DNA of 56,697 nt from a virus (IMGVR_UViG_3300020171_002227:1-56697); one strand, 5' to 3'; positions 22,421 through 54,532 are shown, numbered from the stretch's first letter. Made by a program: numbers and translations. The notes: a model not told the origin generated them from the letters alone.

Positions 22421-23175
22421 ATTATTTTCTCCAATTTAATATTTTTCATTTTCTTACTACCATGACAATGCATACATAATGGTTTTAAATTCCATGGCTT
22501 ACCATTGCAACCTTGCTCTTTATCCTCATCAATATGATGTACTGATAACTTTATTAATTTATTAGTTTTAGTAATATTATCTTTTTCATCTATACCACAA
22601 ATAACACACTTTCTATTATATTGTTCTCTTACTTCTTCTTTTTTCTTTTCATTAAATTTAATACAATATGGTTCAAAAGAAATACCGCCTTTCCACGAGG
22701 CATTCTTTTCAAGATTATGTTTATTCATTGCGGAATCTGACATTCTTTTTCGCGATATGTCGGAAAAACATTTACCTTTATTTATAGATATTTTACCTTT
22801 ATTTTCATTAGATATTTTTTCTTTGTGTTCTTTCGAACAATGTTTATCTTTAAATGGATTATTTACTCTAGAATGGTGTCCTTGAATATATTTTGGTATG
22901 CCATGCCATTTATGATGTTCTTTTATAATAATTTCTACTCGACAAGGACATTCACAATATACTTTTGGTTTCTCGTTTTTTAACCATTCTTTATACGATT
23001 GCGATAAAATTCTATTTATTCCTTTATTATAACCAATTTGTAATCCTACTTTACCTTTATTCCACGGTATTTGTAATCCTACTTTACCTTTATTCCACGG
23101 TATTTTATTTCTATGTTTTTTCTTATGTTCTTCAGATTGTTTATAACCTACGCGTGGCATTTTTATATCCCTCAA
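22417..23175 (-). CDS. Free-standing HNH homing endonuclease
   Basis: IPWNKGKVGLQ repeat, CECPC, RKCVICG…SVHHID…LCMHCH; true start may be ATG 23160. Confidence 0.85.
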   Translation of the reverse strand: MRDIKMPRVGYKQSEEHKKKHRNKIPWNKGKVGLQIPWNKGKVGLQIGYNKGINRILSQSYKEWLKNEKPKVYCECPCRVEIIIKEHHKWHGIPKYIQGHHSRVNNPFKDKHCSKEHKEKISNENKGKISINKGKCFSDISRKRMSDSAMNKHNLEKNASWKGGISFEPYCIKFNEKKKEEVREQYNRKCVICGIDEKDNITKTNKLIKLSVHHIDEDKEQGCNGKPWNLKPLCMHCHGSKKMKNIKLEKII

Positions 23176-24079: not shown

Positions 24080-24080
24080 T

Positions 24081-24218
24081 TTAAAACTCCAAAACTTTAT
24101 TTAATTTTTTATACCATCTATCAACGCAATCATTACACATTGTAGGCGGTAACCAACTTTGAAGTTCATACCAATCTTTATCATATAATATTAAACCGTT
24201 GCATGTATCACATTTCAT
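24081..24218 (-). CDS. Small CxxC…CxxC protein (45 aa, not in ORF track)
   Basis: MKCDTCNG…MCNDCVDRW…; fills the gap between operon genes. Confidence 0.45.
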   Translation of the reverse strand: MKCDTCNGLILYDKDWYELQSWLPPTMCNDCVDRWYKKLNKVLEF

Positions 24219-24224
24219 TTTAAT

Positions 24225-25310: not shown

Positions 25311-25342
25311 TAATAATCTATCCTATAATGCTATAATAGTAT

Positions 25343-26848: not shown

Positions 26849-27479
26849 AAGTCACCAAATTTACATAATAAAGTTTAGATATATTATATTTCATATTCAA
26901 ATTATTTAATAACACTATAATACTTTCATCGTTAAATAGTTGTTGATGCCAAATATGCTTATATTTGGCATCGGATATTGCAGAAACACATTTAGCCATT
27001 GTAGTAGGATGCTCTAAGGTAGCTTTAATTTCTTGTCGATCTATTTTATCATCATAACCACAATAAGTATTAACCACATTCTTATCTGAATGCGACATTT
27101 CACCAACAGTCCATTCAGATTCACATGGTAATGTTATTACAATTTTATTTTTTGTAACTCTCTTTGCATCTTGTAAAGCTTTTAATGGATCGGCAACATG
27201 TTCAAGTACATCACCAAAAACTATTGTATCAAATGTATTATTTTTAAATGGTAAATTTAAAGCATCACCACGAACAAATTTAGGATCTTTCAACCATAGC
27301 GGCAACCAAACATCGCAGTCAAAAAACATAATCTCATTTATATATCGTTTAGTTGGATAACTTGGATACCATCTTTCAAATGCCCATAGACTGGTATCAT
27401 TACAACCCACATCTAATATTTTATTATCTGAATTACGCACAATAAACTCAAATCGATGCATTTGTAAACTAGGTATCAT
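26826..27479 (-). CDS. Class I SAM-dependent methyltransferase
   Basis: ILDVGC, GDALNLPF…FDTI, DVLEHV; start MIPSL matches the paralog at 31389-32051. Confidence 0.85.
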   Translation of the reverse strand: MIPSLQMHRFEFIVRNSDNKILDVGCNDTSLWAFERWYPSYPTKRYINEIMFFDCDVWLPLWLKDPKFVRGDALNLPFKNNTFDTIVFGDVLEHVADPLKALQDAKRVTKNKIVITLPCESEWTVGEMSHSDKNVVNTYCGYDDKIDRQEIKATLEHPTTMAKCVSAISDAKYKHIWHQQLFNDESIIVLLNNLNMKYNISKLYYVNLVTYGIVCYK

Positions 27480-27480
27480 T

Positions 27481-28575
27481 TCACCACTCCTCACCATTTA
27501 TAATTTGATTATAAATCTCAAGATGTTTCTTAGCCATAACAATTCTGTCGAATCTATTTAACATATCATCACGACATTTTATTGTATCAATTTTATCTAT
27601 ATTATTTATTGCATTTCTCATTTCGTCAATGTTATTACAAAGTAACCCAGTTTCTTTATCCTTTACAATTTCGCATGGTGCACCATGATTAAAAGTTATA
27701 ACCGGTGTTCCACATGATAATGATTCAATCATTACCAATCCAAAACCCTCCCTATAAAGAACGGGGAACAAAAATGCCTTAGCATTTTGAATAAGTTGTC
27801 GTTTAGTGTATTGATGATTACTATCATTTTGTAATTCAATATATTTAATATTATCATATCCAATTATAGATTTTAAATACGCATCACGTAATGACTTATA
27901 AATATTATCTGGTTCACCGCAAGCAATAATAAGATTAAATTTCATTTCTTTTGCCAAGCTTATAGCGATGTCAATACCCTTATGTTGCAATAAACTACCA
28001 AAATAAATAAAATAATTGCTTTTATCATACTTAGGTAAATAAAAATTCGTATTAGTTCCAAAATGTATAAATCTTACAGATTCATTTTTACCCGTATATC
28101 CAACTTTTTCATACCAAGGTGTTCTTTCAAAACCATTTAATCCATTTGCGGCGGCAAATTGTGAACTTTTTGATGGAACCAATATGTTATGTGCTTTCTG
28201 ATTCCAACTAAATCCAAAATAAGTACATGTTACGTTTTTATACCCCTCATCATATAATGAATTATTAAAAATTTTTGAATGACTAAAATCATGTACAAAA
28301 TCAGATTTCTTTAAATCATCTTTATATTTATTAAACAGTTTATGCTCTAACGTAGGATTACAATCATCACGTAATGGTATTTCTACAAGCTTACCACCTT
28401 TAGGTATTTGTGAACCCACTGGCGCATAAAGTATAACTTCATGACCCAATTCAATATATGCGCACGCTAAATCCCAAATAAAGATTTCCGCGCCCCAGCC
28501 ACACGGTGGACATGTATGTGAAGTATTAGATATTATAGATATTTTCATTTTTTTATTTCCTGAAATAATTGCCAA
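27481..28575 (-). CDS. GT4-family glycosyltransferase
   Basis: PPCGWGAE, HKGID, EGFGLVMIESLSCGTPVI. Confidence 0.92.
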   Translation of the reverse strand: MAIISGNKKMKISIISNTSHTCPPCGWGAEIFIWDLACAYIELGHEVILYAPVGSQIPKGGKLVEIPLRDDCNPTLEHKLFNKYKDDLKKSDFVHDFSHSKIFNNSLYDEGYKNVTCTYFGFSWNQKAHNILVPSKSSQFAAANGLNGFERTPWYEKVGYTGKNESVRFIHFGTNTNFYLPKYDKSNYFIYFGSLLQHKGIDIAISLAKEMKFNLIIACGEPDNIYKSLRDAYLKSIIGYDNIKYIELQNDSNHQYTKRQLIQNAKAFLFPVLYREGFGLVMIESLSCGTPVITFNHGAPCEIVKDKETGLLCNNIDEMRNAINNIDKIDTIKCRDDMLNRFDRIVMAKKHLEIYNQIINGEEW

Positions 28576-29195
28576 CTTTTCTGTGAACTAATTAGAGCAT
28601 CCTCAGACGATATACGAGGAAAATGTGGTATATGAACGACCTCAACATCTCGCATACATATAAATTTTATATGTTTCCACATTCTCCATAAAAATTCTTG
28701 GCACCAATGTGTGGCACAACCTTTAAATTCTTCTCTAAAATTTATAAAATATTTTCTATTAAAACAACAAAATCCTTCAGGTAAATCGTATGATTTAAAA
28801 TAAAATTCTTCAAAGTTTTTGCGCGTTTCAAGACTATTTATCATCATAAGTTTGCCAGCATATAATTTATCGTTACCATATTTTTCTATATATTCACTTA
28901 GTCTCTCTAAATAATCCGGATATACTATTAAATCTAAACTCCATAAATGAATATATTCACCATGAGAAACTTTAAATCCCTCGTTCATCAATTTACCAAT
29001 TCGATCGGTGGGAACCAAAATATTATTTATTTTAATACCATTATATAAAATATAATCAGTATCTATTATTTTGTTGCCGCAAATTATTATTTCAAAATCT
29101 TTAAATGTTTGATTTACTAAAAAATCTATACAATGCTTTAAATTATTATCAGTAAATGTTCCATAAACCGGAATTATAAAGGAAAATTTAACCAT
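28545..29195 (-). CDS. GT2/GT-A-like glycosyltransferase
   Basis: FSFIIPVY…QTFKDFEIII…NEGFKVSHGEYI; DxD degenerate (SLD). Confidence 0.75.
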   Translation of the reverse strand: MVKFSFIIPVYGTFTDNNLKHCIDFLVNQTFKDFEIIICGNKIIDTDYILYNGIKINNILVPTDRIGKLMNEGFKVSHGEYIHLWSLDLIVYPDYLERLSEYIEKYGNDKLYAGKLMMINSLETRKNFEEFYFKSYDLPEGFCCFNRKYFINFREEFKGCATHWCQEFLWRMWKHIKFICMRDVEVVHIPHFPRISSEDALISSQKSWQLFQEIKK

Positions 29196-30693
29196 GTCTT
29201 AACACCTCTATTTTTTGTTCAATCTCATCAATAGTGATGGGTATATTACCTTCATGTTCGCACGCAACAGCTGCACCTAAACTGCCTATAATAGAACTAA
29301 TAACAATATTACCACATACTTTATATGCTAAGGATGATACTGCTAACATTGCATCTCCAGCACCAGTCGCATCAATTAAACAAGATACAAAACTATCAAG
29401 CGCAAAGAAATCTTTAGGTTTATTATTACCATCTCGATATGTTAATGTTCCACGCTCACCCAATTTTAGAATAAGATTTTTGGCACCAGACTTTTTATAT
29501 AATTCTAATCCTAAAGGTCTTACACCGGTATCTTGATCACCTAATGCAAATCTTGCCTCTTTTTCATTGGGTAAAATTAAATCAAAATTTTTAAAATCTA
29601 ATATGTTTCCCCATCGATTATTAACCTGCGTATCTGCAACACGCATAATATTTTTAGGTATTAAAGATGCTAAATAGTTAGACGTAAATTTATTAAATAT
29701 TCCGTGTCTAAAATCACTGAATATAATGATATCTGTAGGAGTTTTCATTATATCTTTTAGCTCATCTAATATCTTATTAGATATCATTCTATTATCCACG
29801 GTATTTACTTGGAGTAATTTATAACCATCAACCCAAAATCTTTCCTTTAATGTTGTGGGTCGACTATCAATAATTGGTTTAAAATTTATATCAACTAAAT
29901 CATTAATAACAAAATTTGCTAAATTATCATTACCTAATACTGTTGTAAATGTTACATCTGCGCCTAAACTTTTTAAGTGTTTAGCGACAATACCGGCACC
30001 ACCTATGAATGTTTTTTCTGATTCTCGTTTTACGCTAAAAGTGGGAGTTTTTGCGGTCTGACCTATTAAAGAACAGTATGAATATTTGTCAACGATAGTA
30101 TCTCCCACTACATGTACTTTAATATTTTTAAATTGATGTAAGATATTACTTAAATCATCAAAATTAATATTTTCAGATTCCATTATAGTAAGTAATTTAT
30201 CTATAGTGAGCTTTGGTTTGTGCATAGCTAATAATTTTGTAGATGAATAAACAACATCCCCCGGACTATAAATACATTTTCCACCATATGATTCTACAGC
30301 ATCAATTTCTTCTTGAGTTTTTGGATTATGACCATCTTTATATTCGAATCCCTTACAAAAAAAATCAGGTTGTATTTTCAATATATTTTCAATAGGTGTT
30401 GGATTTTCATCAATAATAACAAAATCTATCATTTCTAAAGCCGCTAAATTTTCTGCACGTAATTGTTGAGGTATATAAGGACGATCTTCCCCTTTAGATA
30501 TATATTTATCACAAGTTAAACTTGCAATAAGAATATCAGCTTGATTTTTTGCATATTGCAAATATCTCAAATGTCCAACGTGGATCACATCGAAACAACC
30601 ATGTCCAATAATAACCGTTTTATTTCTTGGGAATTTACCAATAATATCACAAATTTCATCAACACTTTTAATTTTATTAAGATAATTTAACAT
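29188..30693 (-). CDS. Bifunctional nucleotidyltransferase / PfkB sugar kinase (HldE-like, reversed domain order)
   Basis: N-terminal GCFDVIHVGH; C-terminal VVGDTIVDKY, PNEKEA, DATGAGDA. Confidence 0.88.
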   Translation of the reverse strand: MLNYLNKIKSVDEICDIIGKFPRNKTVIIGHGCFDVIHVGHLRYLQYAKNQADILIASLTCDKYISKGEDRPYIPQQLRAENLAALEMIDFVIIDENPTPIENILKIQPDFFCKGFEYKDGHNPKTQEEIDAVESYGGKCIYSPGDVVYSSTKLLAMHKPKLTIDKLLTIMESENINFDDLSNILHQFKNIKVHVVGDTIVDKYSYCSLIGQTAKTPTFSVKRESEKTFIGGAGIVAKHLKSLGADVTFTTVLGNDNLANFVINDLVDINFKPIIDSRPTTLKERFWVDGYKLLQVNTVDNRMISNKILDELKDIMKTPTDIIIFSDFRHGIFNKFTSNYLASLIPKNIMRVADTQVNNRWGNILDFKNFDLILPNEKEARFALGDQDTGVRPLGLELYKKSGAKNLILKLGERGTLTYRDGNNKPKDFFALDSFVSCLIDATGAGDAMLAVSSLAYKVCGNIVISSIIGSLGAAVACEHEGNIPITIDEIEQKIEVLRHG

Positions 30694-31388
30694 TTTAGAA
30701 CCTTAGATTTTTTACTATTATGACAATGCATACATAACGGAACTAATCGCCATGGTTTTCCCTTACAACCTTGTTCTTTATCACTATCTACATGATGAAC
30801 TGATAATTTATTAAATTTACCCGTTTTAGTAATATTATCTTTTTCTTCTCTTACACAAATAACACATTTTCTTCCATATTGCTCTCGCACTTCTTCTTTT
30901 CTTTTTTCATTAAACTTAGGACAATATGGTTCAAATGACTTTCCACCCTGCCAATTAGATGATAATTCACCACATAATCCGGTATGAGATTTAGATAATT
31001 TGCTTTTAGTCTCTTCTGTTCTTTTTATACCTAAAATTTTACCCTTATTACTATTTCCTATTTTTTTATTATGATCTTCGGTATTATGTTTTCCATACCT
31101 TGGATTTTTATCGCCATTTTTAGATTCTGACATTTTTTTTATACTTTCTTCAGAATGACGTTTTCCATACCATGGATTTTTATCACCAATTAATGATTGT
31201 GATATTTTTTTTCGCACTTCAGGATTTTTACATGGATTATTATTAATTATTTGATGACCTACAATATATTTAGGAATTCCCATAGATTTATGTTGTCTTT
31301 TAATAATAATTTCTTTACCACATCCACATTGACAAAAATGTTTACCTTGATTTTCTATAATAAACATTTTTATTTTATTCCCGCGCAT
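30687..31388 (-). CDS. Free-standing HNH homing endonuclease
   Basis: CQCGCG, NPWYGKRHSEE (NUMOD3), RKCVIC…SVHHVD…LCMHCH. Confidence 0.85.
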   Translation of the reverse strand: MRGNKIKMFIIENQGKHFCQCGCGKEIIIKRQHKSMGIPKYIVGHQIINNNPCKNPEVRKKISQSLIGDKNPWYGKRHSEESIKKMSESKNGDKNPRYGKHNTEDHNKKIGNSNKGKILGIKRTEETKSKLSKSHTGLCGELSSNWQGGKSFEPYCPKFNEKRKEEVREQYGRKCVICVREEKDNITKTGKFNKLSVHHVDSDKEQGCKGKPWRLVPLCMHCHNSKKSKVLKC

Positions 31389-32051
31389 CTATTTTCTCCA
31401 CGCAATACACGCCAATGATACAAAATTCAAACAACTATAATGTATATTGTAAATATGCCAATCCCATTCATTTTTATCAAAATTACTTTCGATTAATTTA
31501 GTAAAAGTTTCTTCATTAAAGAACCTCTGGTGATGGATGTGATGGAAGTCCACATCATCTAATGCATCACTACATAACCCGGATGGATGTCTAATACTAC
31601 AATCCTTACTTAATTCATGCATATCCTCACCATTAGCAATATGGGTATCTCTTGTTATGAATCTTTGCACATAAGGACTATCTTGTAACCATTTATATTC
31701 ATTTGGCACTGTTATAATAATTCTATCTCGCGTTAATCGTTTTCCTTCTTTTAATACGATATCAACATCATTTATATGTTCAAGTATATCTCCGTAAATA
31801 ACGGTATCGATTGAACGATCTGGTAGTGGTATGTTTTCTGCAAATGCACGAATGAATTTAAATCCTAGTGTATTATTCCATTGATCGCAATCCACGAGAG
31901 TCACCGATTTAATATGCGGCGGATTCGTTATAGACTCTTGTGGTATTGGATATCTCCATTGCGCATGATCCGCACAACCAATATCCAACACATCACCTAT
32001 AGCAAACCTTGTCTGAAACTCAAATCTATGCATCATTAAACTTGGTATCAT
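31389..32051 (-). CDS. Class I SAM-dependent methyltransferase
   Basis: VLDIGC, AENIPLPDRSIDTV, DILEHI, ITVPN. Confidence 0.85.
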   Translation of the reverse strand: MIPSLMMHRFEFQTRFAIGDVLDIGCADHAQWRYPIPQESITNPPHIKSVTLVDCDQWNNTLGFKFIRAFAENIPLPDRSIDTVIYGDILEHINDVDIVLKEGKRLTRDRIIITVPNEYKWLQDSPYVQRFITRDTHIANGEDMHELSKDCSIRHPSGLCSDALDDVDFHHIHHQRFFNEETFTKLIESNFDKNEWDWHIYNIHYSCLNFVSLACIAWRK

Positions 32052-32315
32052 TTCTTTTCATCCATTCTAAACATTGTTGGGTTCTTGCATTCATGTGGTA
32101 AATCCGCTCTTACCATCGTGCAACACCATACGCACCATATATACGGATGATCATTTTCGTATCTAATTCCTACCATATTTATATCCTCACCAATCTTTTT
32201 TTAATAATTTACTTATGTTTTCTCTGCTCGATTTATATTTTAATATAAGTATTCTTGTTTTTTAGTTGCGAGTTCAACTTTATTATTTCTTTTTTACATA
32301 TCGAATAAATATATA

Positions 32316-33113
32316 TTATGGATTCACCCCATATTTTTTACATAATAAATTATATTTATTAGTGCTTACAATTGCGACATCTTCAGGATCAAAAAATTTT
32401 ACAAAGGGTGGAATTGGATAACTCATTATTCGTTGTATTGCGGCTCTACCATCAGATACAAATTTAAGATTATTTTCGTATATTAATCTAACATAAAATT
32501 CAATATTAGCCGGACCAGTTCTTCCATTATAAGATTCATCCCAACCACCAATTTTTCTCGCGTATATTGTTGGAAATGATTCATTACGACTATAACAAGT
32601 TCGATGATCTACTAAAGTTCCATTAGGCGCGTCTAATTTTGGATCCATTCTAAATTGTGGTAATACAGTAAACATTTTAGTATTAAATTCTTCATAAAAT
32701 GTAGAAAACGGATCTTCTAAATTTGATTTTAATTTTGGTAAACCATAAATAATTTGTGGTGCGGACAAACAATACCCCGCTTCATTATATTGATAATGTA
32801 TGTCAATCCAATATGGATTCATATAAGTGTAATCACTAAGTATAATTGTATATTGTCCCGTAGCTTTTTCTAAACATTGATTTAAGGAACTATTGTGTGA
32901 GTGATAATCGGATTGATTTTGTGGTTCAAAATGAATTACATTGATTTTATTTTCTTGCGCCCAATTCTTCACTATTGTCGCACGTCTATTATACAATTTA
33001 TCTGACCATACTATCTCAAATTCGGATTTTAAAAATGTTTGCTTTTTAAAACTTTCAAAAAGCATATCACATCCACCATACCGGTGCGTACACAATAAAA
33101 TACTAATTTTCAT
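32316..33113 (-). CDS. GT2/GT-A-like glycosyltransferase
   Basis: ISILLCT…QTF…FEIVWSD…IGGWDESY; tandem paralog of 33110-33907. Confidence 0.75.
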   Translation of the reverse strand: MKISILLCTHRYGGCDMLFESFKKQTFLKSEFEIVWSDKLYNRRATIVKNWAQENKINVIHFEPQNQSDYHSHNSSLNQCLEKATGQYTIILSDYTYMNPYWIDIHYQYNEAGYCLSAPQIIYGLPKLKSNLEDPFSTFYEEFNTKMFTVLPQFRMDPKLDAPNGTLVDHRTCYSRNESFPTIYARKIGGWDESYNGRTGPANIEFYVRLIYENNLKFVSDGRAAIQRIMSYPIPPFVKFFDPEDVAIVSTNKYNLLCKKYGVNP

Positions 33114-33907
33114 GGATTAACTCCATATTTCTTACATAGTATATTATATCTTCTTGTATTTATAGTCATGTCCATTTCTTCTGATAAAAATTCTGTAAAT
33201 GGTGGTATTGAATAAGACATTATCCTATATATTTCCGCTCGACCATCACAAGCAATTTTACAATTAGCTTCATATTGTAATCTTAATCCAAATTCCAAAT
33301 TAGATTGCCCGGCTCTATTGTTATAATTTTCATCCCAACCACCAATTTCTCTACCTAATTTAGTGGGAAATGATTCATTTCTATTATACCAATAATGGAA
33401 ATCAATCAAAGCGCCATTTTGTAATTGTAACTTCGGATCCATATTAAATATAGGCAGCAATTTAAACATATCGATATTAAAATCTTCATAAAATATCGAG
33501 ATGGGATGTTCTAAACTACTGCATAGTTTTGGTAAACCATAAATTCTTTGCGGTGCAGATAAGCAATATCCCGATTGATGGTATGCATAATGAATTTCCA
33601 TCCAATGCGGTAACATGTAGGTATAGTCTCCGATACATATTATACACTCACCAGATGCTTTATTTAAACATTCATTTAATACACTACTATGAACATGGTA
33701 ATTAGACTGCGTCTTAGGTTCGAAATGTATGATGTTAATACCGTTATCTTTTGCCCAAACATAGACTAAATCTTTACGCTCTTTATATAATTTATCGCAC
33801 CACACTAATTCATATTCATTTTTATCAAATGTCTGATGTTCTAAACCAGCAAAAAGCATATCTACGCCACCCCAACGGTGCGTAGTTAATATAATCGACA
33901 CCTTCAT
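33110..33907 (-). CDS. GT2/GT-A-like glycosyltransferase
   Basis: VSIILTT…QTF…YELVWCD…IGGWDENY. Confidence 0.75.
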   Translation of the reverse strand: MKVSIILTTHRWGGVDMLFAGLEHQTFDKNEYELVWCDKLYKERKDLVYVWAKDNGINIIHFEPKTQSNYHVHSSVLNECLNKASGECIICIGDYTYMLPHWMEIHYAYHQSGYCLSAPQRIYGLPKLCSSLEHPISIFYEDFNIDMFKLLPIFNMDPKLQLQNGALIDFHYWYNRNESFPTKLGREIGGWDENYNNRAGQSNLEFGLRLQYEANCKIACDGRAEIYRIMSYSIPPFTEFLSEEMDMTINTRRYNILCKKYGVNP

Positions 33908-34674
33908 ATTTTATCTCCAAAATAATTTAATAAATTTCTTTCTCTTAATTTTTCCATAAAATGCTCTTCCCAATAATTACGATTAAAATTAGCTTTACCA
34001 TGACAACTACTACATAAAGTAATTAAATCCGGATAACAATCTTCCTTTTTATAATGAATATGATGAACCGATAATTTTCTACCATTTTCTAATTCTGTTT
34101 TATTACATTTTTGACAAATTCTATCATCACGAATTCGTATTTCTTCCCTTAATTCCTCTGTCCATCTTTCACAATATTTTATTTCGGTAATTCCACCCTT
34201 CCAATTAGGATTATTTTCACGGCTACTGGCTTCTGATAATTTCTTTCTAGTTTCATAGGAGGGATATTTTCCTTTATTAACTTCTGATAATTTTTTCTTA
34301 TGTTCTTCAGATTTAGGTTTATCTTTATGAAATTCAGATATTTTTTGCCTCACCTCTAATCTTTTAGCGGGATTATTATCACCTGATAATCTTCCTAAAT
34401 TTTTTTTACTTATTTTTTGTTTTGCTTCTTCAGTTTGTTTTTTACCTTTTCGATGTGATGGTTTACCTTTTTTACTATCAGATATTTTCTTTTTATGTTC
34501 TTCTGATTTAGGTTTATCTTTATGTGTTTCAGACATTATTTTACTAATATCATCATCTATTATAGGAAAATTAGGAAAGGACGCAACATACATATTAAAA
34601 TTAATATTATGTTTTCTTAAATGAAGATTATTTATATATTTAAAATTTTTATGACAAATTTGGCATTCAACCAT
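33904..34674 (-). CDS. Free-standing HNH homing endonuclease with N-terminal C2H2-like finger and NUMOD3 repeats
   Basis: CQICH…HLRKH; KPKSEEHKKK repeats; RDDRICQKC…SVHHIHY…LCSSCH. Confidence 0.87.
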   Translation of the reverse strand: MVECQICHKNFKYINNLHLRKHNINFNMYVASFPNFPIIDDDISKIMSETHKDKPKSEEHKKKISDSKKGKPSHRKGKKQTEEAKQKISKKNLGRLSGDNNPAKRLEVRQKISEFHKDKPKSEEHKKKLSEVNKGKYPSYETRKKLSEASSRENNPNWKGGITEIKYCERWTEELREEIRIRDDRICQKCNKTELENGRKLSVHHIHYKKEDCYPDLITLCSSCHGKANFNRNYWEEHFMEKLRERNLLNYFGDKI

Positions 34675-34682
34675 AAAACTAC

Positions 34683-35936
34683 TTACTCCTTTTTCATTAA
34701 TTTTTCTGTGGGTTTATATTTCTTTTCTAATTTTTCTCTCCAAGCAATAGCTTCATCAAACGTTAACTTGGATGTTGATATCCGACAAACTGTATGTGAA
34801 TATTCTCCGGGAATTCCCTTATAGTGCGATCGACATTTTTTATTAAATTTTAAATCATATTTTTCTGAATTTTCGTAAATATCCGAACCCGGAAAGATTG
34901 AAAGTATAGTAAAGTCAACATCGTGAGGAGCGGTTCGTTCAACAAATTCATCCATTTTTTGTAAACTATCCGGACTTTCATGTGGCAAACAAATTATAAA
35001 TAATTCCTTTAAATTAATGCCCGCAGATTTAATCATATTACAAACTTTTTCAGCATTTTCAATATCAATATTTTTATTGATGATATTTAATATTTCAGGA
35101 TCAGCACTCTCAATTCCAACGGCAATTTCTATACATCCTGCTTCAGACATAATAGATATAATTTTTTTATTAAGACTTTCCACTCGCGATAAACACCTCC
35201 ACTTTATATCCAATGGTGTAACTAATTCACAAAATTCTTTAAGTCGTCGCTTATTGCTTACGAACTCATCATCAAAAAAAACGAATGAATTAATATTATA
35301 CTTTTCTTTAATTTCCACGATTTCTTTTATCATATTTTCCGCTGAACGATATCTAACTTTACTTCCGGGTAATTGATATTTACAACAGAACGCACATTTT
35401 CCCCAAGAACATCCTTTAGATGTAATCATAGTAGTGCTTGGTATTCCACGTAATTTATAATTTTCAGCATACATTTTTATATCAAGTATGCTGCGATCAG
35501 GAAATGGTATTTCATCTAAATTCTCAATCTTTATTTCCGTATAAATCTTTTTAATATTCGGATAATCTTTTAATATCTGTAAGCTTGCAATCTCACCCTC
35601 ACCAATAACGATTGCATCAGCCCACATACAATCTTGCGCCATGAGGGTAGGATGTGGACCGCCTACCACGAACTTGGCGGATATGTTATTCTTCTTTAAC
35701 AGTATCATTGCTTCCTTAGCGTATTCCAAATTGGGCGTTGCTACGTAAATAAAGAATATATCCCCCTTTATATCTGAATAATCTTTATCACTTTCCATAT
35801 CAATTAGTTGTATATTATTATAACCATGTTCCTTGAAGAAAGAACTCAAAGTTAAAAGTCCAAGGGGAGGAAATACAAACTTCGAAATTAAATATGGACT
35901 TATTGGGTTCACAAGTATTATACGTAAATCATTCAT
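34683..35936 (-). CDS. B12-binding radical SAM protein
   Basis: PPLGLLTL, VVGGPHPT, IGEGE, TSKGCSWGKCAFC, FFDDEF, GIES. Confidence 0.92.
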   Translation of the reverse strand: MNDLRIILVNPISPYLISKFVFPPLGLLTLSSFFKEHGYNNIQLIDMESDKDYSDIKGDIFFIYVATPNLEYAKEAMILLKKNNISAKFVVGGPHPTLMAQDCMWADAIVIGEGEIASLQILKDYPNIKKIYTEIKIENLDEIPFPDRSILDIKMYAENYKLRGIPSTTMITSKGCSWGKCAFCCKYQLPGSKVRYRSAENMIKEIVEIKEKYNINSFVFFDDEFVSNKRRLKEFCELVTPLDIKWRCLSRVESLNKKIISIMSEAGCIEIAVGIESADPEILNIINKNIDIENAEKVCNMIKSAGINLKELFIICLPHESPDSLQKMDEFVERTAPHDVDFTILSIFPGSDIYENSEKYDLKFNKKCRSHYKGIPGEYSHTVCRISTSKLTFDEAIAWREKLEKKYKPTEKLMKKE

Positions 35937-39202: not shown

Positions 39203-40180
39203 TTATTTCAAGTCCCTGATCTTTCCCTGAGTGTTGAATCTTGTACAGATTAACTCACCCATAGTTCTAAACAGACCTTCATCACCAAGATAATTGATGC
39301 CAAATGGATCTTTCTTAGACATACCGGACTCGAAGTACATAGTCGGTAATGCGACTTTGAACGCGAGATAGTCAGTATCTAAGATATAGATTCTGCTTAT
39401 TGTGTCCTGCACAACATCTTTAGATGGTATGATAGGAATGCCCTGGTATGTTGCAACGTTAAAGCCTGCTTCAGCACCGGGGATACCTTTTACGCCACCA
39501 TATGTCGGAACTACAAGTTCTCTACCCATAAATCTCTGTTGGGCTTGAAGTGCTTGCTGTATTCTTTCAATGGTATCATAACCAGTCACGATGATCTTAG
39601 GATTAGCACCCTTAACTCTTAACTCTGTAAGGGCGGTATCGAGCATATCAATGGTGAAAGTTCTATCCACATCCGAATTATGATTCACATATGCGTCTGC
39701 CCATGAATTGGCTGTATCTGATCGGTCAATGCTATATATATCTGAATCGCCAGCACCTACAACGGCATCTTCAGCAAGACTTGAACATACACGATCAATG
39801 GATTCAACGTTGTTTCCTGCAACGGTTGTAACGTCACCTAAAAGCATTTTATTGATCATTTCAGCATGATGTTTGCCCATTTCCTCTCTCATGACCTTCA
39901 TGACATCTCCAAGACCGTCGTCTTTTGTGCCTAAGAACGTTTCCATTTCAGAAGCGTTAAAGCTATGAGCGATGATCTTTGGTTTTGTTGAAAGTTCCTT
40001 AAAAGTAGGTTTGATTGTGTCTGGTAAAGTTGCGTTTTCTCCAACACCGCCGCCACTTAAGGCTGCCCTATTGGTGATAACTCTCCATCCACTTTTCTCC
40101 CAAACTATTTTTGGTAACAGTGCAAATATATTTTGCTCTTGGTTTAATTGCGACCAAATTTTTGCACCAAATATCGGGTT
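39203..40180 (-). CDS. Major capsid protein (HK97 fold), exon 2 (325 codons + stop)
   Basis: Frame is open 78 codons upstream of the track's Met (NPIFGAKIWSQLNQEQNIFALLPK…GWRVIT…ENATLP…KPKIIAH); C-terminal YQGIPIIPS…QGKIRDLK. Confidence 0.9.
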   Translation of the reverse strand, partial: NPIFGAKIWSQLNQEQNIFALLPKIVWEKSGWRVITNRAALSGGGVGENATLPDTIKPTFKELSTKPKIIAHSFNASEMETFLGTKDDGLGDVMKVMREEMGKHHAEMINKMLLGDVTTVAGNNVESIDRVCSSLAEDAVVGAGDSDIYSIDRSDTANSWADAYVNHNSDVDRTFTIDMLDTALTELRVKGANPKIIVTGYDTIERIQQALQAQQRFMGRELVVPTYGGVKGIPGAEAGFNVATYQGIPIIPSKDVVQDTISRIYILDTDYLAFKVALPTMYFESGMSKKDPFGINYLGDEGLFRTMGELICTRFNTQGKIRDLK

Positions 40181-40926
40181 CTGTTCTCTAAAAAATAATA
40201 TGATTTATTGAATCTACACATTTACAAACATTTTCATTTATTTCATGTTCCCAAAATCTATAAACAATAAAACCTTTTTCTTTAAGAAGTTTATCACGAA
40301 TTTTATCTTTTTCTATTATATTTGGAAGATTATGCCAATAATCACCATCGCACTCAACGATAATATTATCATTAATTAAAAAATCAACTCTAAATTTTTC
40401 TAACATAGAAACTTGTTCCGTATAATCAATATTACGATTTTTTAACTCTTGTGCAATTTTTTTTTCTATTGATGATGATTTTCCACCTTGATTTTTTCGT
40501 GATGTTAATACAGCCTTACGAGCCCGATTAGACCTTTCTTCTGCATTAAATCTTTCTTTATAGGTTTCTTTTTGTTTTTCGATAATTTCAGGATTATTAA
40601 TATATGTTTGTGTAAGTGTATTTGAAATTTGCTTTATAATTTCAGGATTATCAATATATGTTTGTTTAAGCGTTTCACCTTGTTTAGTTCCCTTATTTTG
40701 AAACTGTTCTGAATTTTTACGAGCAACTAATTGACTATTTCGATATGTTTCATCTTGCCAATTTTCTGTTTTTCTTTTGCTCATTTTTTCTTTATATTCA
40801 GGATGATCTTTAAACAATTTTTTTAACCTTTTTGAAGCAACTTCAAATGATTCATTTCGACCCATAATTATACCTTAAACTTATAAATAAGTATCCCAAT
40901 ATAATTAATCATACTACTTTTTAAAA
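40181..40926 (-). mobile_element. Archaeal bulge-helix-bulge intron (746 nt) in the MCP gene
   Basis: CGGGU/ACCCG exon helix, AGA bulge, GUUU/GAAC 4-bp helix, AUU bulge, 19-bp intron stem; canonical cuts rejoin the frame. Confidence 0.9.
40188..40865 (-). CDS. Intron-encoded Vsr/DUF559-like (PD-(D/E)xK) endonuclease
   Basis: SSIEKKI…VDFL…VECDGDYWH…DKIRD…GFIVYRFWE; basic N-terminal repeats (QTYIDNPEII / QTYINNPEII). Confidence 0.88.
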   Translation of the reverse strand: MGRNESFEVASKRLKKLFKDHPEYKEKMSKRKTENWQDETYRNSQLVARKNSEQFQNKGTKQGETLKQTYIDNPEIIKQISNTLTQTYINNPEIIEKQKETYKERFNAEERSNRARKAVLTSRKNQGGKSSSIEKKIAQELKNRNIDYTEQVSMLEKFRVDFLINDNIIVECDGDYWHNLPNIIEKDKIRDKLLKEKGFIVYRFWEHEINENVCKCVDSINHIIF

Positions 40927-41040
40927 ATAAACACCCGTAGTGGTACTGAGCACTGGACTATCCGCTTTCTGCAATTCAAGGCCACGGCCGTAATAATACT
41001 CTTCCATGTCCTTTACTGTTTTAACATAGTTTCTTACCAT
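40927..41040 (-). CDS. Major capsid protein, exon 1 (38 codons; not in ORF track)
   Basis: AAGGAG RBS; MVRNYVKTVKDMEEYYYGRGLELQKADSPVLSTTTGVY, then TTT TAA if unspliced. Confidence 0.88.
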
Positions 41041-42518: not shown

Positions 42519-42651
42519 ACTAACAATATAAATTTCATTTATAATATGATAAAAATTAAATTAATCTTCATCAAATGTTGTGAATATACTCAAAAGTAGT
42601 ACAATTACAACTAACAATATAAATTTCATTTATAATATGATAAAAATTAAA
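42519..42651. repeat. 42-bp exact direct repeat (42519-42560, 42610-42651), each containing the late promoter motif
   Basis: ACTAACAATATAAATTTCATTTATAATATGATAAAAATTAAA occurs twice. Confidence 0.9.
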
Positions 42652-43240
42652 ATGATCTAAATTCAACTATATTCTGCATTAATAAAAAGAAAAATGCTAC
42701 AGTATTTATAGGTTCCATATTTCTATTGCGCAATACCGAATGTCCACCATAAAAATGACAACTTTTTGGTATGTAAATTACATCTTCTTTATTGATATGA
42801 TGTGCATTAGAATTTTCAAACCACATATTTAAAGGATTAAAACCTAAATTTCGATTACGTTTATTAGTATATCTTTTATTACCCTCTTTACCTTTAGGTG
42901 TTTTTTGATATTCTTTATTACATCCTTTAAGTTCTTCTTTATTATCTTGATAATATTCTTTAATTTCCTCTTTGTGATTTTCACGATATTTTTTAGAACT
43001 TTCTTTAATTTCCTCTTTATTTTCTTGATAATATTCTTTACGTTTTTCTTTTGTATCTTGATAATATTCCTTTTGATATTTTTTAGAGTGTTCTTTACGT
43101 TTTTCTTTTGTATCTTGATAATATTCCTTTTGATATTTTTTAGAATAGTCTTTAGAGCATTCCTTAGAACAGAACACTTGCGTACTATGCTGGGTTTTAA
43201 ATTCTTTACCACAAATTAAACAATTAAGTATATGTACCAT
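42647..43240 (-). CDS. HNH-like endonuclease with Zn finger and K/E/Y-rich repeats
   Basis: CLICG…FCSKEC; SKKYQKEYYQDTKEKRKE repeat; NAHHINKEDVIYIPKSCH. Confidence 0.65.
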   Translation of the reverse strand: MVHILNCLICGKEFKTQHSTQVFCSKECSKDYSKKYQKEYYQDTKEKRKEHSKKYQKEYYQDTKEKRKEYYQENKEEIKESSKKYRENHKEEIKEYYQDNKEELKGCNKEYQKTPKGKEGNKRYTNKRNRNLGFNPLNMWFENSNAHHINKEDVIYIPKSCHFYGGHSVLRNRNMEPINTVAFFFLLMQNIVEFRSF

Positions 43241-43465
43241 TTATTTAAAATCCACAATATTCAAAACCTTATGTCCAAAATGCTTTAATTCGGTAATTTT
43301 ACTTTCAAGTTCTTCCTTAGTTGCGCCGATAAAATCAATTTTTCCATCTTTCGATTGATAGTTAATTTTATAGGCTTTCTGAATGGCATCTTTAATTATA
43401 TCCATATCGTCTTGTTGTTTTCCGTATGCCACGGAAAGTTGCATATCTAAATCCTTAATGTTCAT
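43241..43465 (-). CDS. Small hypothetical protein
   Basis: ATG 43465 overlaps the zeta-like gene stop (ATGA). Confidence 0.5.
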   Translation of the reverse strand: MNIKDLDMQLSVAYGKQQDDMDIIKDAIQKAYKINYQSKDGKIDFIGATKEELESKITELKHFGHKVLNIVDFK

Positions 43466-44394
43466 AAAATCCTCTTTGATGGTGAATAGGATGAATCCCA
43501 AAGTTCATATTCATCAACTAAATCTTTATATTTCTTTTGCGCTTCATTTATATTATTGCCTTCTTTTGCAATCCAATGCAACGGGATATATCTACCCGTT
43601 GTCATAAATCTCCTTGTTGCGCGAATTATTAATAATTCCACATTTGCCTGCACGGATACAACTTTAATTTTATAGCCAAGTTCTTTTAATCTTGCTATTT
43701 TCTTAGTTTCTTTTTCAACATCTCTCATCGTACCATCAATAATAATATTTCGCCTTTCAGCTAAACTACGTTCAATAAGCCTATCATGAATATCACGAGC
43801 TTCATCATGATACAGCATAGCATTTACACCAGTATATCCCGGTAATCGTTCTTGAATATCATCTGAATTCACATATGTAAAATCGGAACCCTTCACACCC
43901 TTATGTTTTAAAATTGTAGATTTTCCTGATGCTGGTGGACCACCGACTAATAAAGCCGCCGGCGTTTCACCATTTTTAGGTAACGAATTATCACCAATAA
44001 ACTCTTCCATAATTCTTTCATGTAATATTAATCTTTCTGGCGTATATCCACCAGTATTACTATACATGTTTTTTGATGTTCTGCCGTTATTAACGCCATC
44101 TAAAACCTTATATAATTTTGATACATTTGGCATGGAATGTATAGACTCCCACGCATGATCTAAGGTATAAGATATATTTGTTTGTGGTTGCGATTCGGCG
44201 ACTTCCCGTGACTCATAGTATATACCGCCATGTTTACCACGCTGCAATGATACACCTTTAGGCGCATCATTAGCATCTTCAACATAAACTCGTGTTTTTT
44301 TAATTTCAGATTTTTGAACACCGTTAAAAAATTTACTCATGAAGTCATTAATTACTTGTATGTCGTTTTCCTTATAACCTAATTTTGTTTGCAT
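43462..44394 (-). CDS. Zeta-toxin-like P-loop kinase with N-terminal repeated tag
   Basis: GGPPASGKST, VNSDDI, NIIIDGT, RFMTTGRYIP; tag KKTRVYVEDANDAPKG…GKHGGIYYE. Confidence 0.85.
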   Translation of the reverse strand: MQTKLGYKENDIQVINDFMSKFFNGVQKSEIKKTRVYVEDANDAPKGVSLQRGKHGGIYYESREVAESQPQTNISYTLDHAWESIHSMPNVSKLYKVLDGVNNGRTSKNMYSNTGGYTPERLILHERIMEEFIGDNSLPKNGETPAALLVGGPPASGKSTILKHKGVKGSDFTYVNSDDIQERLPGYTGVNAMLYHDEARDIHDRLIERSLAERRNIIIDGTMRDVEKETKKIARLKELGYKIKVVSVQANVELLIIRATRRFMTTGRYIPLHWIAKEGNNINEAQKKYKDLVDEYELWDSSYSPSKRIL

Positions 44395-45266
44395 CAGAAT
44401 ACCCCCATTTCCCGTAATATATTTAATCTTCCCTCTTTATATTTATATCTATCAGATGTTATGGTATCAGTAGGATATAAATATCTATTTGGTATCTTCG
44501 CTTGACTTCCCCCAACAATTTGCCTATAATCTTCTGCTAATATTTCATCCAAACTTTCGTACATTGCATTTAAACTTACACCATAATGCATTTGTACATA
44601 TTGCGCATACTTTTTAAATTTCTCATACTCAATTTTTTGAAATTCTAATTGTGTTTTTATATCTTTAAAGTTTATAAATTTATGTACTTTGGTATGTCCG
44701 ACTTCATGAATAATTGTAACGGCTCGTTTATCCTCAGTTATAAAGGATAGTTCTTCAGGTGTATAATTTGCTTCCTTTAAAATATCTTTTAACTCATCCA
44801 CCCATTCAGCATACTCGTGTTCAGATGTCGCAGGTAAATAAATATTTGTGGGATCATTAGATGATACAAAAGCAAATGCATTCGATATATTTAAGGGTAA
44901 TAAATTAAGTGTGACTCCACCCAAATCAATATTATGTTTCTTAATTAATCCATTTATATACTCTATTGATGTTGGTGCCGTGGAAGTATATTCATCATCA
45001 CCCATCATTAACATCACGTTTAAAAACTTTTGTGAATCTACAAATATGGTTTCAACACGGTTTTTTACTTGTTGTGCGGCAGGTTTAGACCTTTCCATGT
45101 CATCACTTATATAATACTGGCCGCCACGTTTACCTTCTTGTAGTTTAGCGCCCGGCGGTGCTTCAGCGGGATTTTTTACATAAACTTTAGCTTTTTTAAT
45201 TCGTGTATTGAATGATTTAATCCAATCGGCACTTTCACCACCAATATCTAAAATTATTGTTTTCAT
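44394..45266 (-). CDS. Zincin-like metallopeptidase with N-terminal repeated tag
   Basis: IIHEVGH…EILAEDY; tag KKAKVYVKNPAEAPPG…GKRGGQYY. Confidence 0.7.
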   Translation of the reverse strand: MKTIILDIGGESADWIKSFNTRIKKAKVYVKNPAEAPPGAKLQEGKRGGQYYISDDMERSKPAAQQVKNRVETIFVDSQKFLNVMLMMGDDEYTSTAPTSIEYINGLIKKHNIDLGGVTLNLLPLNISNAFAFVSSNDPTNIYLPATSEHEYAEWVDELKDILKEANYTPEELSFITEDKRAVTIIHEVGHTKVHKFINFKDIKTQLEFQKIEYEKFKKYAQYVQMHYGVSLNAMYESLDEILAEDYRQIVGGSQAKIPNRYLYPTDTITSDRYKYKEGRLNILREMGVF

Positions 45267-46519
45267 GGTAAATCTCCAACATCTTGGTCATGAAATCTAA
45301 GTTCAACGTTTCGACAATACACTTCCCTATCTTCACCAATCGTTAATATTTCTCGTTCATTTCCCATATATGCATGTGACATAAATGTTGACCAAATTTT
45401 ATCTTTTGGTATTTTTGTACTTAATATAAAACCATGTAATTGTTGGCTACCTGCAAACTTTTCCGCAACTTCGGGTTTTAATGTCCATGAACTTAATGAA
45501 TTAGATTTAACCAAAACCTTATTTTCATCTGACTCTACATCATATCCATTTATTAAATTAAATTCCTGTCGTGTTGTTCCCCTATAGATAGTAATTTCAT
45601 TGGTGTTAGGAAACATTACATCTAAAAATGATCTTGTTAATTGTTTTTGTATTTTAACATAATTATCAACTAATTCTTGCGGATATTTTCCGTGTAATTC
45701 TTGAAGTTTAACATCTATATCCTTTACCGCATCATGATATCTAATTTCGCCACCAAATTGTCTTTTAATTGAATCTTTTAATAATAATGCTAAATCAGAT
45801 GAACTTGATTGTTCCCAATCCTCTTTTGATTCTTCATGAAATTCAACATATTTACCATCATACAACATATTATAAAATTCATTTGTTGCTTCAATTACTA
45901 TTGTACTTTTCATATCATTTTTCATTATGTCATTAACATAATTTTTAAATTGTTCATTTAAATCAATTTTTCCAGTTTTATTAAAATTATCTATAATTGG
46001 CGTTAAAAATCTAACAACAGGAAGTCTTTTTGTTACAATATTTGTAAAATCTACAAATTGCGTAGCATTTAAACGACTATACTTTCCAGTATCTATTATA
46101 TTCTTAATAAATTCTAATCCACTTAAATCAATTCTATATGCAATTTTTGTATTAACGCCAACATCAACATCATTATTATATAACATTATATGTAACCCAT
46201 TTTGATCAATTCTTTCAGCAACTTTTTGACGCACTATTGGCTCTTTATCATTAATCAATTTATGTAAATGTTCCATATCACATTTATGGGCCGCTAACCA
46301 CCGAATATTAGTATCAGTATCACTAGTAAAAAAATTTATAATTTTTATATCATTTGTATGTTGTAAAACAAATTTACGCTCATCATATGCTCTATTTTTT
46401 AATTCATCACCACTACCATCATCTATTTTTTGTCTATATACAGATTCAAATGATATCGGTTGTTTATATTTACTTGGATATATTGATGATGATAGAGGTT
46501 GAATTGTCTTACCCCTCAT
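45263..46519 (-). CDS. Putative ADP-ribosyltransferase (R-S-E type) with N-terminal HEAT/LRV-like repeats
   Basis: IYRG…LSSWT…VAEKFA…NEREIL; DTNIRWLAA / DKEPIVRQKVA repeats; first ATG at 46519. Confidence 0.65.
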   Translation of the reverse strand: MRGKTIQPLSSSIYPSKYKQPISFESVYRQKIDDGSGDELKNRAYDERKFVLQHTNDIKIINFFTSDTDTNIRWLAAHKCDMEHLHKLINDKEPIVRQKVAERIDQNGLHIMLYNNDVDVGVNTKIAYRIDLSGLEFIKNIIDTGKYSRLNATQFVDFTNIVTKRLPVVRFLTPIIDNFNKTGKIDLNEQFKNYVNDIMKNDMKSTIVIEATNEFYNMLYDGKYVEFHEESKEDWEQSSSSDLALLLKDSIKRQFGGEIRYHDAVKDIDVKLQELHGKYPQELVDNYVKIQKQLTRSFLDVMFPNTNEITIYRGTTRQEFNLINGYDVESDENKVLVKSNSLSSWTLKPEVAEKFAGSQQLHGFILSTKIPKDKIWSTFMSHAYMGNEREILTIGEDREVYCRNVELRFHDQDVGDLP

Positions 46520-46610
46520 AATAATGACCACCTTGCGGACATTCTTCAATCTTTACACCTTTTGGCGCATCAGAAGGATTTTTCACATAGACTTTAGCTT
46601 TGTGTATCAT
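46509..46610 (-). CDS. 33-aa tag-only ORF, out of frame with the downstream ART-like ORF (not in ORF track)
   Basis: MIHKAKVYVKNPSDAPKGVKIEECPQGGHYYEG*; ATGA overlap with the upstream gene. Confidence 0.75.
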   Translation of the reverse strand: MIHKAKVYVKNPSDAPKGVKIEECPQGGHYYEG

Positions 46611-53815: not shown

Positions 53816-54532
53816 TTAGCATATCAAAGATTTAATTCCAGAAATTAAATCTTCTTTTATTTTAGCTAATTTTCCACCTTTCTTTTTTAATTTATTATGA
53901 CATTCTAAACAATATGTAATTCCGTTATTTAAATCCCATAATATTTCACAATTTAAAGCATCTTCTATTTTTGTAATATTATATTCTTTAATAATTTCTT
54001 TGCGTGATTTAATATGATGAACTTCTAAATATGTTCCACGAATATTACAACATTGACAAGTAAAATTATCTCTTCCGAATATCTGGAATCTCCATTCTTT
54101 ATATTTATCAGAATTTCTTATTATATTATTCAATGTTGAAATACCGCCTTTCCAATTTGAAGATTTATCTCCTATAAGTAATTTAATAGCTTCAGATATT
54201 TTTCTTTTATGTTCTTCAGATTTTGGTTTACCTTTATGAATTTTAGATATTTTTTTTCGAGTTTCTTTAGATATTTCCCTTTTAGCTTCAGACATTTTTC
54301 TTTTAGTTTCTTCGGAAAGTATTTTACCTTTCTCACTTTCAGATATTTTTCTTTTAGTTTCTTCGGAATGTTTTTTACCTTTAAAACCATTATGTTCATT
54401 ATGTCCATTAATATATTTAGGTATGCCATCATATTTATGTGACGATTTTATAATAATTTCACCTTCACACCCGCAAGCGCAAATTATTTTAGGTTGACCA
54501 TCTTCTAACCATTTTATATAAGATGGATGCAT
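53816..54532 (-). CDS. Free-standing HNH homing endonuclease with NUMOD3 repeats
   Basis: CACGC, KHSEETKRKIS, RDNFTCQCC…LEVHHI…NGITYCLECH. Confidence 0.88.
   Translation of the reverse strand: MHPSYIKWLEDGQPKIICACGCEGEIIIKSSHKYDGIPKYINGHNEHNGFKGKKHSEETKRKISESEKGKILSEETKRKMSEAKREISKETRKKISKIHKGKPKSEEHKRKISEAIKLLIGDKSSNWKGGISTLNNIIRNSDKYKEWRFQIFGRDNFTCQCCNIRGTYLEVHHIKSRKEIIKEYNITKIEDALNCEILWDLNNGITYCLECHNKLKKKGGKLAKIKEDLISGIKSLIC

Follow-up and report, generated by a model that had tools for sequence, protein, structure and literature searches.

Archaeal introns of the bulge-helix-bulge (BHB) type are removed by proteins: in tRNA and rRNA precursors EndA cuts both bulges, canonically after the second base of each, and RtcB ligates the exons and circularises the intron. 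Those of rRNA genes can encode LAGLIDADG enzymes (I-DmoI, I-PorI and the Aeropyrum pernix rRNA introns), and in phage genes homing endonucleases are carried by group I introns, such as those of T4 td, nrdB and sunY. BHB introns in pre-mRNA were reportedly found by Watanabe in 2002 in cbf5 of Desulfurococcales and Sulfolobales. As far as the accessible parts of the sources cited here by accession go, BHB introns occur chiefly in genes for rRNA and tRNA and frequently include homing endonucleases (PMC8598171). Archaeal pre-mRNA splicing had been confirmed only for cbf5, whose introns are too short for a nuclease and had no known form with an open reading frame (ORF); for putative introns of 12 bp in an archaeal virus, splicing was never demonstrated (Yokobori 2009, PMC2738675). 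A splicing-endonuclease structure paper of 2025 cites the cbf5 work for protein-coding introns, and no other such case surfaced in its accessible text (PMC12397907), while the accessible sections of papers on magroviruses and Poseidoniales viruses describe inserted nuclease genes and mention no introns (PMC5434244, PMC11706807). The EDxHD homing endonuclease I-Bth0305I resides in a group I intron of recA in Bacillus phage 0305phi8-36 (PMC3239194). For protein-coding or viral genes, our search, which did not reach most subscription journals, found no published BHB intron that carries a homing endonuclease. Here we analyse the virus record IMGVR_UViG_3300020171_002227 (in the following 'the window': the entire IMG/VR record of 56,697 nucleotides (nt), labelled as a provirus and estimated to be 61% complete), in which the major capsid gene is interrupted by a 746-nt insert. 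With a probability of about 85%, we interpret this insert as a protein-dependent archaeal BHB intron that carries an EDxHD-type nuclease in a tailed archaeal virus.

The capsid gene is divided as follows.
Positions 40927..41040, minus strand: capsid gene exon 1, 38 codons (MVRNY...TTTGVY), homologous to the N-termini of the uninterrupted capsid genes of loci L002-L006
Positions 40181..40926, minus strand: predicted BHB intron, 746 nt, after codon 38 of the major capsid gene
Positions 39203..40180, minus strand: capsid gene exon 2, 325 codons plus stop

Exon 2 was identified by Pfam SU10_MCP (E 6e-8) and by PHROG 24667, a major head protein (E 6e-65). When read without splicing, the frame of exon 1 meets a stop two codons into the insert (..GVYF, then stop), and the earliest in-frame start codon of exon 2 is its codon 79. 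The insert has a GC content of 25.3%, versus 41-42% for the exons. Uninterrupted capsid homologues in five virus contigs (L002-L006) read ...TTTGVY/NPIFGAK... exactly over the predicted junction (marked here by a slash). Because neighbouring bases differ, no other cut pair yields the homologue sequence, and ...GTTTAT/AACCCG... is the sole junction that restores the homologues' frame. The joined frame reads ..TTTGVYNPIFGAK.., as in the uninterrupted homologues, and the spliced product would be a capsid protein of 363 amino acids (aa).

The sequences around both boundaries can be paired into the following elements.
Positions 40933..40937, minus strand: outer helix, 5' strand in exon 1 (CGGGU), pairs with 40175..40179
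Positions 40929..40932, minus strand: central 4-bp helix, exon strand (GUUU), pairs with 40183..40186 (4 of 4 pairs, one of them G-U)
Positions 40926..40928, minus strand: 5' bulge (AU/U), predicted cut between 40927 and 40926
Positions 40907..40925, minus strand: inner helix, 5' arm, intron bases +2 to +20
Positions 40187..40205, minus strand: inner helix, 3' arm, formed by the last six ORF codons, the TAG stop and one further base, intron bases -25 to -7
Positions 40183..40186, minus strand: central helix, intron strand (GAAC)
Positions 40180..40182, minus strand: 3' bulge (AG/A), predicted cut between 40181 and 40180
Positions 40175..40179, minus strand: outer helix, 3' strand in exon 2 (ACCCG)

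This is the strict hBHBh' geometry, with a 5-bp outer helix between the exons, a central helix of 4 bp, two 3-nt bulges and an inner helix of 19 bp, and the canonical cuts within the bulges coincide with the junction demanded by protein homology. That is, geometry and frame restoration both bear out the canonical BHB insert in a protein-coding gene of an archaeal-type virus that a first-pass annotation, made from the DNA alone, had proposed. The junction scores 15 of 16 (central helix 4/4, outer helix 5/6, inner helix 6/6, the latter extending to 19 bp), and only one of 3,720 neighbouring boundary pairs scores equally. In a scan of both strands of the whole window, which gave 2,033 loose candidates on the plus and 2,603 on the minus strand, the outer and inner helices together reached 24 at this position versus at most 18 for every other candidate. 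The same annotation had placed the last codons and the TAG in the 3' arm of the intron stem, and indeed 40205..40187 pairs with 40925..40907 over 19 bp. Since the 3' end and stop of the ORF thereby pair with intron bases +2 to +20, coding and splicing constraints overlap. The ligated exons can form a 5-bp stem with a 7-nt loop, which had been taken for a plausible target resembling a tRNA anticodon arm; the loop is simple arithmetic, because any hBHBh' intron leaves 4 + 2 + 1 nt, and does not count as independent evidence. For insertion by reverse splicing, suggested along with it, we found no support, and no result here bears on it.

A screen of the window for further BHB introns in split ORFs provided no evidence for any (181 cases on the plus and 345 on the minus strand, versus 262 and 918 under a meaningless control pairing rule). 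BHB-like folds with 15 or 16 of 16 points over stop/start gene junctions on the minus strand (16745-16824, 34674-34747, 18290-18393 and 29156-29291) were rejected as chance, the control rule giving more of them.

Almost the entire intron is taken up by a single gene.
Positions 40188..40865, minus strand: homing-endonuclease-like ORF, 225 aa, with a helical, net-basic N-terminal region and a Vsr/DUF559 (EDxHD) nuclease domain

The ORF accounts for 678 of the 746 intron nt (91%), which leaves 61 + 7 nt (68 in total) outside it. Its residues 1-127 are net basic (28 Lys and Arg versus 18 Asp and Glu) and contain an NPEII motif at residue 73 that is repeated at residue 91. The C-terminal part matched the Pfam families MTES_1575 (E 5.5e-13) and DUF559 (E 1.8e-11). 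A LAGLIDADG domain was absent, as Pfam at E <=1 listed only these two families and a chance match to SecD-TM1; NUMOD3 did not match the window nuclease at E <=1, and the corresponding PF07460 is precomputed for many of its relatives. Among solved structures, the best relatives by sequence were PDB 3r3p (I-Bth0305I, E 0.0016; 24% identity over about 97 residues) and then 3hrl, a DUF559 protein. An AlphaFold model built on 20 relatives (predicted local distance difference test, pLDDT, 87.5) contains a helical repeat region over residues 7-126. Foldseek likewise placed 3r3p first for this model (E 1.5e-5, template modelling score, TM, 0.78 over the target), followed by 3hrl, 1cw0 and 1vsr (E. coli Vsr). 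Sequence and fold thus agree with what the first reading had described: a single 225-aa ORF with basic N-terminal repeats and a C-terminal nuclease domain of the Vsr/DUF559 type rather than of the LAGLIDADG type. In the alignment of 20 relatives D173, H178 and D187 are invariant and E171 is conserved in at least 90%. An E/D/H/D signature defines the EDxHD family (accessible text of PMC3239194), and the four columns fit this published motif by our own mapping of the residues.

We then turned to relatives of the nuclease. The search returned 136 proteins at E <=0.001, all with a DUF559 or related Vsr-type domain and many also with NUMOD3, and DNA was fetched for 85 loci (5 viral and 80 metagenomic). 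Using tblastn, we found capsid exons flanking the nuclease in eight of the 85 (L007, which is the L001 contig, and L012-L018; seven contigs besides the window), with an exon on one side only where a contig ends. All closest relatives of the nuclease belong to these eight loci. Homologues with BHB flanks in the same split gene, which the first reading had proposed to look for, therefore exist, and the ORF family is not confined to free-standing genes. According to junctions rebuilt from the protein alignment, the introns occupy four positions in a capsid gene segment of about 45 nt, and at three of these positions a nuclease is present.
Site 0, inside the second Thr codon of STTTG: ORF-less introns of 32 nt in L016 and 40 nt in L013
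Site 1, GVY/NPIF: nuclease introns in the window, L012 and L015; ORF-less intron of 35 nt in L014
Site 2, GAKV/WSQ: nuclease introns in L001, L017, L014, L016 and L013 (in L013 the contig breaks off ahead of the 3' splice site)
Site 3, inside the Gln codon of WSQ: nuclease intron in L018
Two introns in one capsid gene: L013:160-199 and 240-end; L014:273-307 and 332-1217; L016:323-354 and 395-1285

In each of the three genes with two introns, one is ORF-less and the other carries a nuclease, and the micro-exons between them measure 24-40 nt. The capsid proteins of the window and L001 are 94% identical, and their introns occupy different sites. All 11 complete introns score 13-15 of 16, with 0-7 local alternatives that are as good among about 2,500-3,700. 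This local control took every offset within 30 nt on both sides and so covers the freedom of junction placement, homology fixing several junctions to 1-2 nt only and the mini-introns being placed by homology and motif together. Nine of the 11 form all four pairs of the central helix. Even the mini-introns of 32, 35 and 40 nt keep the BHB motif and restore the frame. As a separate observation, a DNA contig of run X2 has the site-1 nuclease intron and, in place of 40147..40153, 109 other letters, which suggests a second, ORF-less insert of about 100 nt near sites 2 and 3.

These capsid genes allow another explanation to be weighed, in which a free-standing homing endonuclease gene was inserted and is not removed from the RNA, the capsid gene being dead, or its protein being made in two pieces or from an internal start. 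The window does hold seven other nuclease genes of the HNH/NUMOD3 type that look free-standing, distant relatives of the ORF sit between complete genes, and the record is incomplete and labelled as a provirus. But exon 1 is open and conserved at the protein level, with synonymous change, in seven further contigs, exon 2 offers no in-frame start before codon 79, in all 11 complete introns the BHB motif coincides, to 1-2 nt, with the junction that homology defines, and frame-breaking inserts without any ORF persist in three contigs. We therefore regard an unspliced insertion as very unlikely.

Were the nuclease carried by a ribozyme, such as a self-splicing intron of group I or II, this would have precedents, since EDxHD nucleases are known from group I introns, as I-Bth0305I in phage recA (PMC3239194), and archaea do have group I introns (PMC6125680; both papers accessible in part). 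However, no Rfam family reached its gathering score in the window, and between 39900 and 41200 no intron or ribozyme family matched at E <=10, the sole match being a chance-level snoRNA (E 10). No group I core (P3-P9) was thus recognised. Moreover, only 61 + 7 nt of the intron are left outside the ORF, and the related mini-introns of the same capsid gene cannot be ribozymes, because they are only 32-40 nt long. A ribozyme is thus extremely improbable. Ribosomes can also hop over a stretch of message, as in T4 gene 60, and the stop two codons past the junction together with the hairpin would suit such a bypass. Against it stand inserts that reach 746-891 nt, junction sequences in which we noticed no matching take-off and landing codons, and the precise BHB geometry at four sites, which hopping would leave unexplained; we give it next to no credence.

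In favour of a BHB intron, the intron strand of the central helix varies with the site and matches the local exon in all 11 complete introns (exon/intron strands below).
Site 1: GUUU/GAAC, GUUU/GGAC, GUCU/GGAA
Site 2: AAAG/CUUG, AAGG/CUUU, AAAG/CUUU
Site 3: GAGU/GCUC
Site 0: GUCU/GGAU, GUCU/AGAU

The exons seem to be adapted as well. At site 1, the exon-exon pairing amounts to 4-5 of 6 in the four carriers and to 1-3 in 11 alleles without an intron there, and the carriers' extra pairing comes from common synonymous codons. Such site-specific synonymous signatures in the exons fit co-conversion. The nuclease introns share one further element.
Positions 40881..40897, minus strand: conserved non-coding motif (GGGATACT plus a TATA-like TTTATAA), about 17 nt upstream of the nuclease ATG

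This motif with its TATA-like box aligns in all nine nuclease introns, at three sites and about 17-25 nt before the start codon, and is unique in the window; it may serve the nuclease as an archaeal promoter. When 17 nucleases were placed in a maximum-likelihood tree, the nine encoded in introns formed one clade (support 95/94) apart from eight free-standing relatives. Within this clade, the sites are interleaved, the nucleases of the window and L012 (site 1) being sister to those of L016 and L013 (site 2). The tree is small and midpoint-rooted, and its eight free-standing rows are the top of the hit list, 69 free-standing loci having been left out. It fits a nuclease that entered an intron once and then moved from one neighbouring site to another, and judged from these comparisons current mobility of the intron is plausible.

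It could also be that the element is a true BHB intron whose nuclease no longer drives, or never drove, homing at this site, because it is decaying or serves as an interference weapon against co-infecting relatives; the different sites would then reflect old events or sliding. Consistent with this, the ORF-less mini-introns indicate that the nuclease is dispensable for intron retention, the helix arms are wholly different between sites even for sister nucleases, and an intron nuclease acting in phage competition has been published (PMC11620839, accessible in part). On the other hand, the ORF is intact and its catalytic residues are conserved in the 20 relatives, capsid genes as similar as those of the window and L001 carry the intron at different sites, and the synonymous exon signatures would be expected from co-conversion. 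We consider a BHB intron without homing unlikely.

Returning to the mobile BHB intron, we propose the following course of events. In the pre-mRNA, the last part of exon 1 would take part in two helices, the central one together with the end of the intron and the outer one together with the start of exon 2, while the two ends of the intron would form the inner helix; both splice sites would thus be exposed in 3-nt bulges separated by 4 bp. Each bulge would be cut behind its second base by EndA of the host, whose RtcB would then ligate the exons and probably close the intron into a circle. The nuclease, possibly transcribed from the TATA-like element within the intron, would cut intron-less capsid alleles of co-infecting relatives, whose repair would copy the intron in and co-convert exon markers beside the insertion site. 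Once the nuclease has decayed or been lost, mini-introns without an ORF would remain, which would still be spliced out and may protect against the matching nuclease. In its widest form, this model describes a family of mobile introns, dependent on host enzymes, that colonise essential genes of archaeal viruses: the gain of a few complementary bases, imitating the splice motif of tRNAs, would have turned a free-standing nuclease cassette into an intron, which would since have shifted between at least three sites that bear the nuclease, of four intron sites altogether, in a 45-nt stretch, with mini-introns left behind. For this wider scenario we see the odds as about even. A homing nuclease made harmless by short complementary flanks had already been part of the first-pass annotation; the idea fits the apparently free-standing state of the distant relatives.

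Several points speak against reading the insert as a spliced BHB intron, or against parts of that reading. RNA evidence of splicing is lacking in the four runs consulted, for which assembled contigs only were used. Runs with the window stretch are labelled as groundwater and drinking-water metagenomes, with small shares in two sediment metatranscriptomes recorded as RNA; a third run was RNA by guess only. In run X15, RNA contigs cover the exons at 88-99% identity, and three of them pass from exon 1 into GVY-NP... without an intron, with a sequence that differs from that of the window; they may be either spliced message or intron-less relatives. Run X12 contributes one RNA contig of 191 nt inside the nuclease ORF, with a single difference. 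As for the fold, a register shifted by one base (40927..40180), the one neighbouring boundary pair with an equal score, is also BHB-like, with four Watson-Crick central pairs and a computed energy of -25.4 versus -26.2 kcal/mol, but yields a frameshift and a stop. Minimum-free-energy folding, for the window as well as for the L014 mini-intron, opens the 4-bp central helix into an internal loop. Two of the 11 introns have just 3 of 4 central pairs, and mismatches are frequent in the outer helices (4-5 of 6 pairs in the relatives). At site 2, exon-exon pairing is equal in carriers and non-carriers, because the conserved Gly-Ala...Trp-Ser codons are already self-complementary. No EndA match was found in the 61%-complete virus record, and the splicing enzymes are assumed to come from the host. 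Finally, activity, target and promoter of the nuclease are predictions only. The comparative evidence nevertheless supports a BHB intron well: the analysis shows the anatomy of the insert, the restored frame, a motif that recurs at four sites, each time with a central helix that matches, and the fold and residues of the nuclease. As regards the shifted register itself, it may cause mis-splicing, or signal an enzyme that measures from the outer helix.

Beyond the capsid gene, the association with BHB motifs disappears. Among the 77 other loci, a screen for a BHB motif combined with an open frame was positive in 20 versus 19 in a control whose 3' search window was displaced by 180 nt, and hence gave no signal. 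In a stricter BHB screen L026, L067 and L068 were flagged; the latter two were not supported as split genes by Pfam analysis of their flanks, and the upstream flank of L026 was too short for it. For 95 of 104 flanking frames that were analysed with Pfam (47 loci with two flanks plus the downstream flank of L082; frames of L011, L033 and L079 and the upstream frame of L082 were dropped as near-duplicates, and L048 was left out), the same family was never split across the nuclease gene. Where both flanks matched, the families differed, and flanking pairs included terminase and methylase, DeoC and GatB, and a T4-type Gp23 capsid protein followed by an unassigned ORF; this is weak evidence, many flanking frames being without a Pfam match. 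The nuclease family thus looks mostly free-standing, including in bacterial phages and cells, and its link to BHB motifs looks like that of one subclade in the capsid gene.

The proposed mechanism presupposes an archaeal host. The head and tail genes of the window (portal, protease-like protein, capsid protein, tail tube and collar) are those of a tailed virus. In a comparison with 50,697 named phage records, all nine matches of the capsid protein were Haloarcula tailed viruses or a Methanofastidiosa virus. Against species-representative genomes, it matched only metagenome-assembled genomes (MAGs), one labelled 'archaeon' (55%) and one of Pacearchaeota (46%). Its relatives (n=1,617) include many marine ones at about 60% identity and a named one, from a Poseidoniales MAG. 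Relatives of the capsid protein are thus confined to archaea and archaeal viruses, and the host is therefore archaeal. Judged by these proteins, the window is a tailed archaeal-type virus. The window contains no tRNA genes.

Further genes of the window encode ThyX, NrdD, an ERCC4-type nuclease, an SNF2 helicase, a large sugar-modification module and many HNH/NUMOD3 nucleases.
Positions 2883-3494, plus strand, and 16783-17409, 22417-23175, 30687-31388, 33904-34674, 53816-54532 and 42647-43240, minus strand: seven more homing-endonuclease-like ORFs (NUMOD3/HNH, one of them zinc-finger/HNH-like)
Positions 21380-35936, minus strand: sugar/modification gene block of about 15 kb with interspersed nuclease genes
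Positions 43462-44394 and 45263-46549, minus strand: proteins with a Zeta-toxin-like P-loop kinase domain and with a DRAT-like (ADP-ribosyltransferase) domain, among the head genes

Six of the seven additional nuclease ORFs begin at the stop of the upstream gene or at most 2 nt from it, and the one at 2883 follows a gap of 511 nt. The conserved motif that lies upstream of the intron-borne nuclease was found in none of the seven. The sugar block encodes four glycosyltransferases, an NAD-dependent epimerase/dehydratase, two B12-binding radical SAM enzymes, three methyltransferases and a PfkB kinase fused to a cytidylyltransferase.

Many public gene calls of the capsid family, including that of the window itself, are truncated (246-318 aa at 74-100% identity, versus 361-366 aa at full length).
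Entries P0123, P0124, P0126, P0133-P0141 and P0144, with P0243: truncated capsid calls and related protein entries

These truncated calls are probably intron-split genes that went unrecognised, and in practical terms truncated capsid proteins in public data probably hide further split genes. One contig of 107,662 nt contains both a truncated capsid call and a nuclease relative. At L002:940-1020, part of an ORF upstream of the uninterrupted capsid gene looks like the N-terminal capsid sequence that surrounds the intron hot spot (..SDAPVTTTTEGVYNPVYG..), the protein of this ORF being otherwise unrelated.

How does this locus compare with known systems? In the literature within reach, BHB introns of protein-coding genes are restricted to the cellular cbf5, where they are short and ORF-less, and those with a nuclease to rRNA genes, where the enzyme is of the LAGLIDADG type. 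At the capsid locus, an essential virus gene appears to rely on tRNA-type splicing by its host, and the intron carries a nuclease of a different family. The comparative series, with its site differences, double introns, mini-introns and co-adapted synonymous codons, provides a testable picture of the gain, movement and decay of the simplest type of intron. If the wider scenario of a mobile intron family holds, it would be a live example of protein-spliced introns arising de novo in coding genes, and capsid production would depend on the tRNA-splicing machinery of the host.

Like the window's intron, the archaeal rRNA BHB introns depend on proteins and contain a homing-endonuclease ORF (PMC8598171 and the accessible parts of PMC2738675). 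They too occur as ORF-less deletion derivatives beside ORF-bearing forms, with number and position varying between close strains, as far as the accessible text reports. The capsid introns differ in residing in a viral protein-coding gene instead of cellular rRNA, and in encoding a Vsr/DUF559 (EDxHD) enzyme instead of a LAGLIDADG one; in addition, the exon part of the capsid motif must be built from codons. The cbf5 introns, in what is accessible of their description, share with those of the capsid gene the protein-coding context and the need for splicing to keep the frame, and their length of 16-44 nt resembles the 32-40 nt of the mini-introns. They are cellular, however, and occupy a single site without an ORF, whereas the capsid introns are viral, occupy four sites and include a 225-aa nuclease. 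I-Bth0305I, by its partly accessible description, is similar in having the nearest solved nuclease domain, the E/D/H/D residues, a multidomain build with an N-terminal DNA-binding region and a location in an intron of an essential phage gene. Its carrier is a self-splicing ribozyme in a bacterial phage, and here it would be a BHB intron in an archaeal-type virus that depends on host enzymes. As with the group I introns of T4, we are looking at a selfish cassette of nuclease plus intron in a conserved viral gene, apparently neutralised by RNA splicing. In T4, the splicing chemistry lies in the RNA itself, whereas the capsid intron would have outsourced it to the tRNA-splicing machinery of its host, and its non-coding cost therefore amounts to only about 70 nt.

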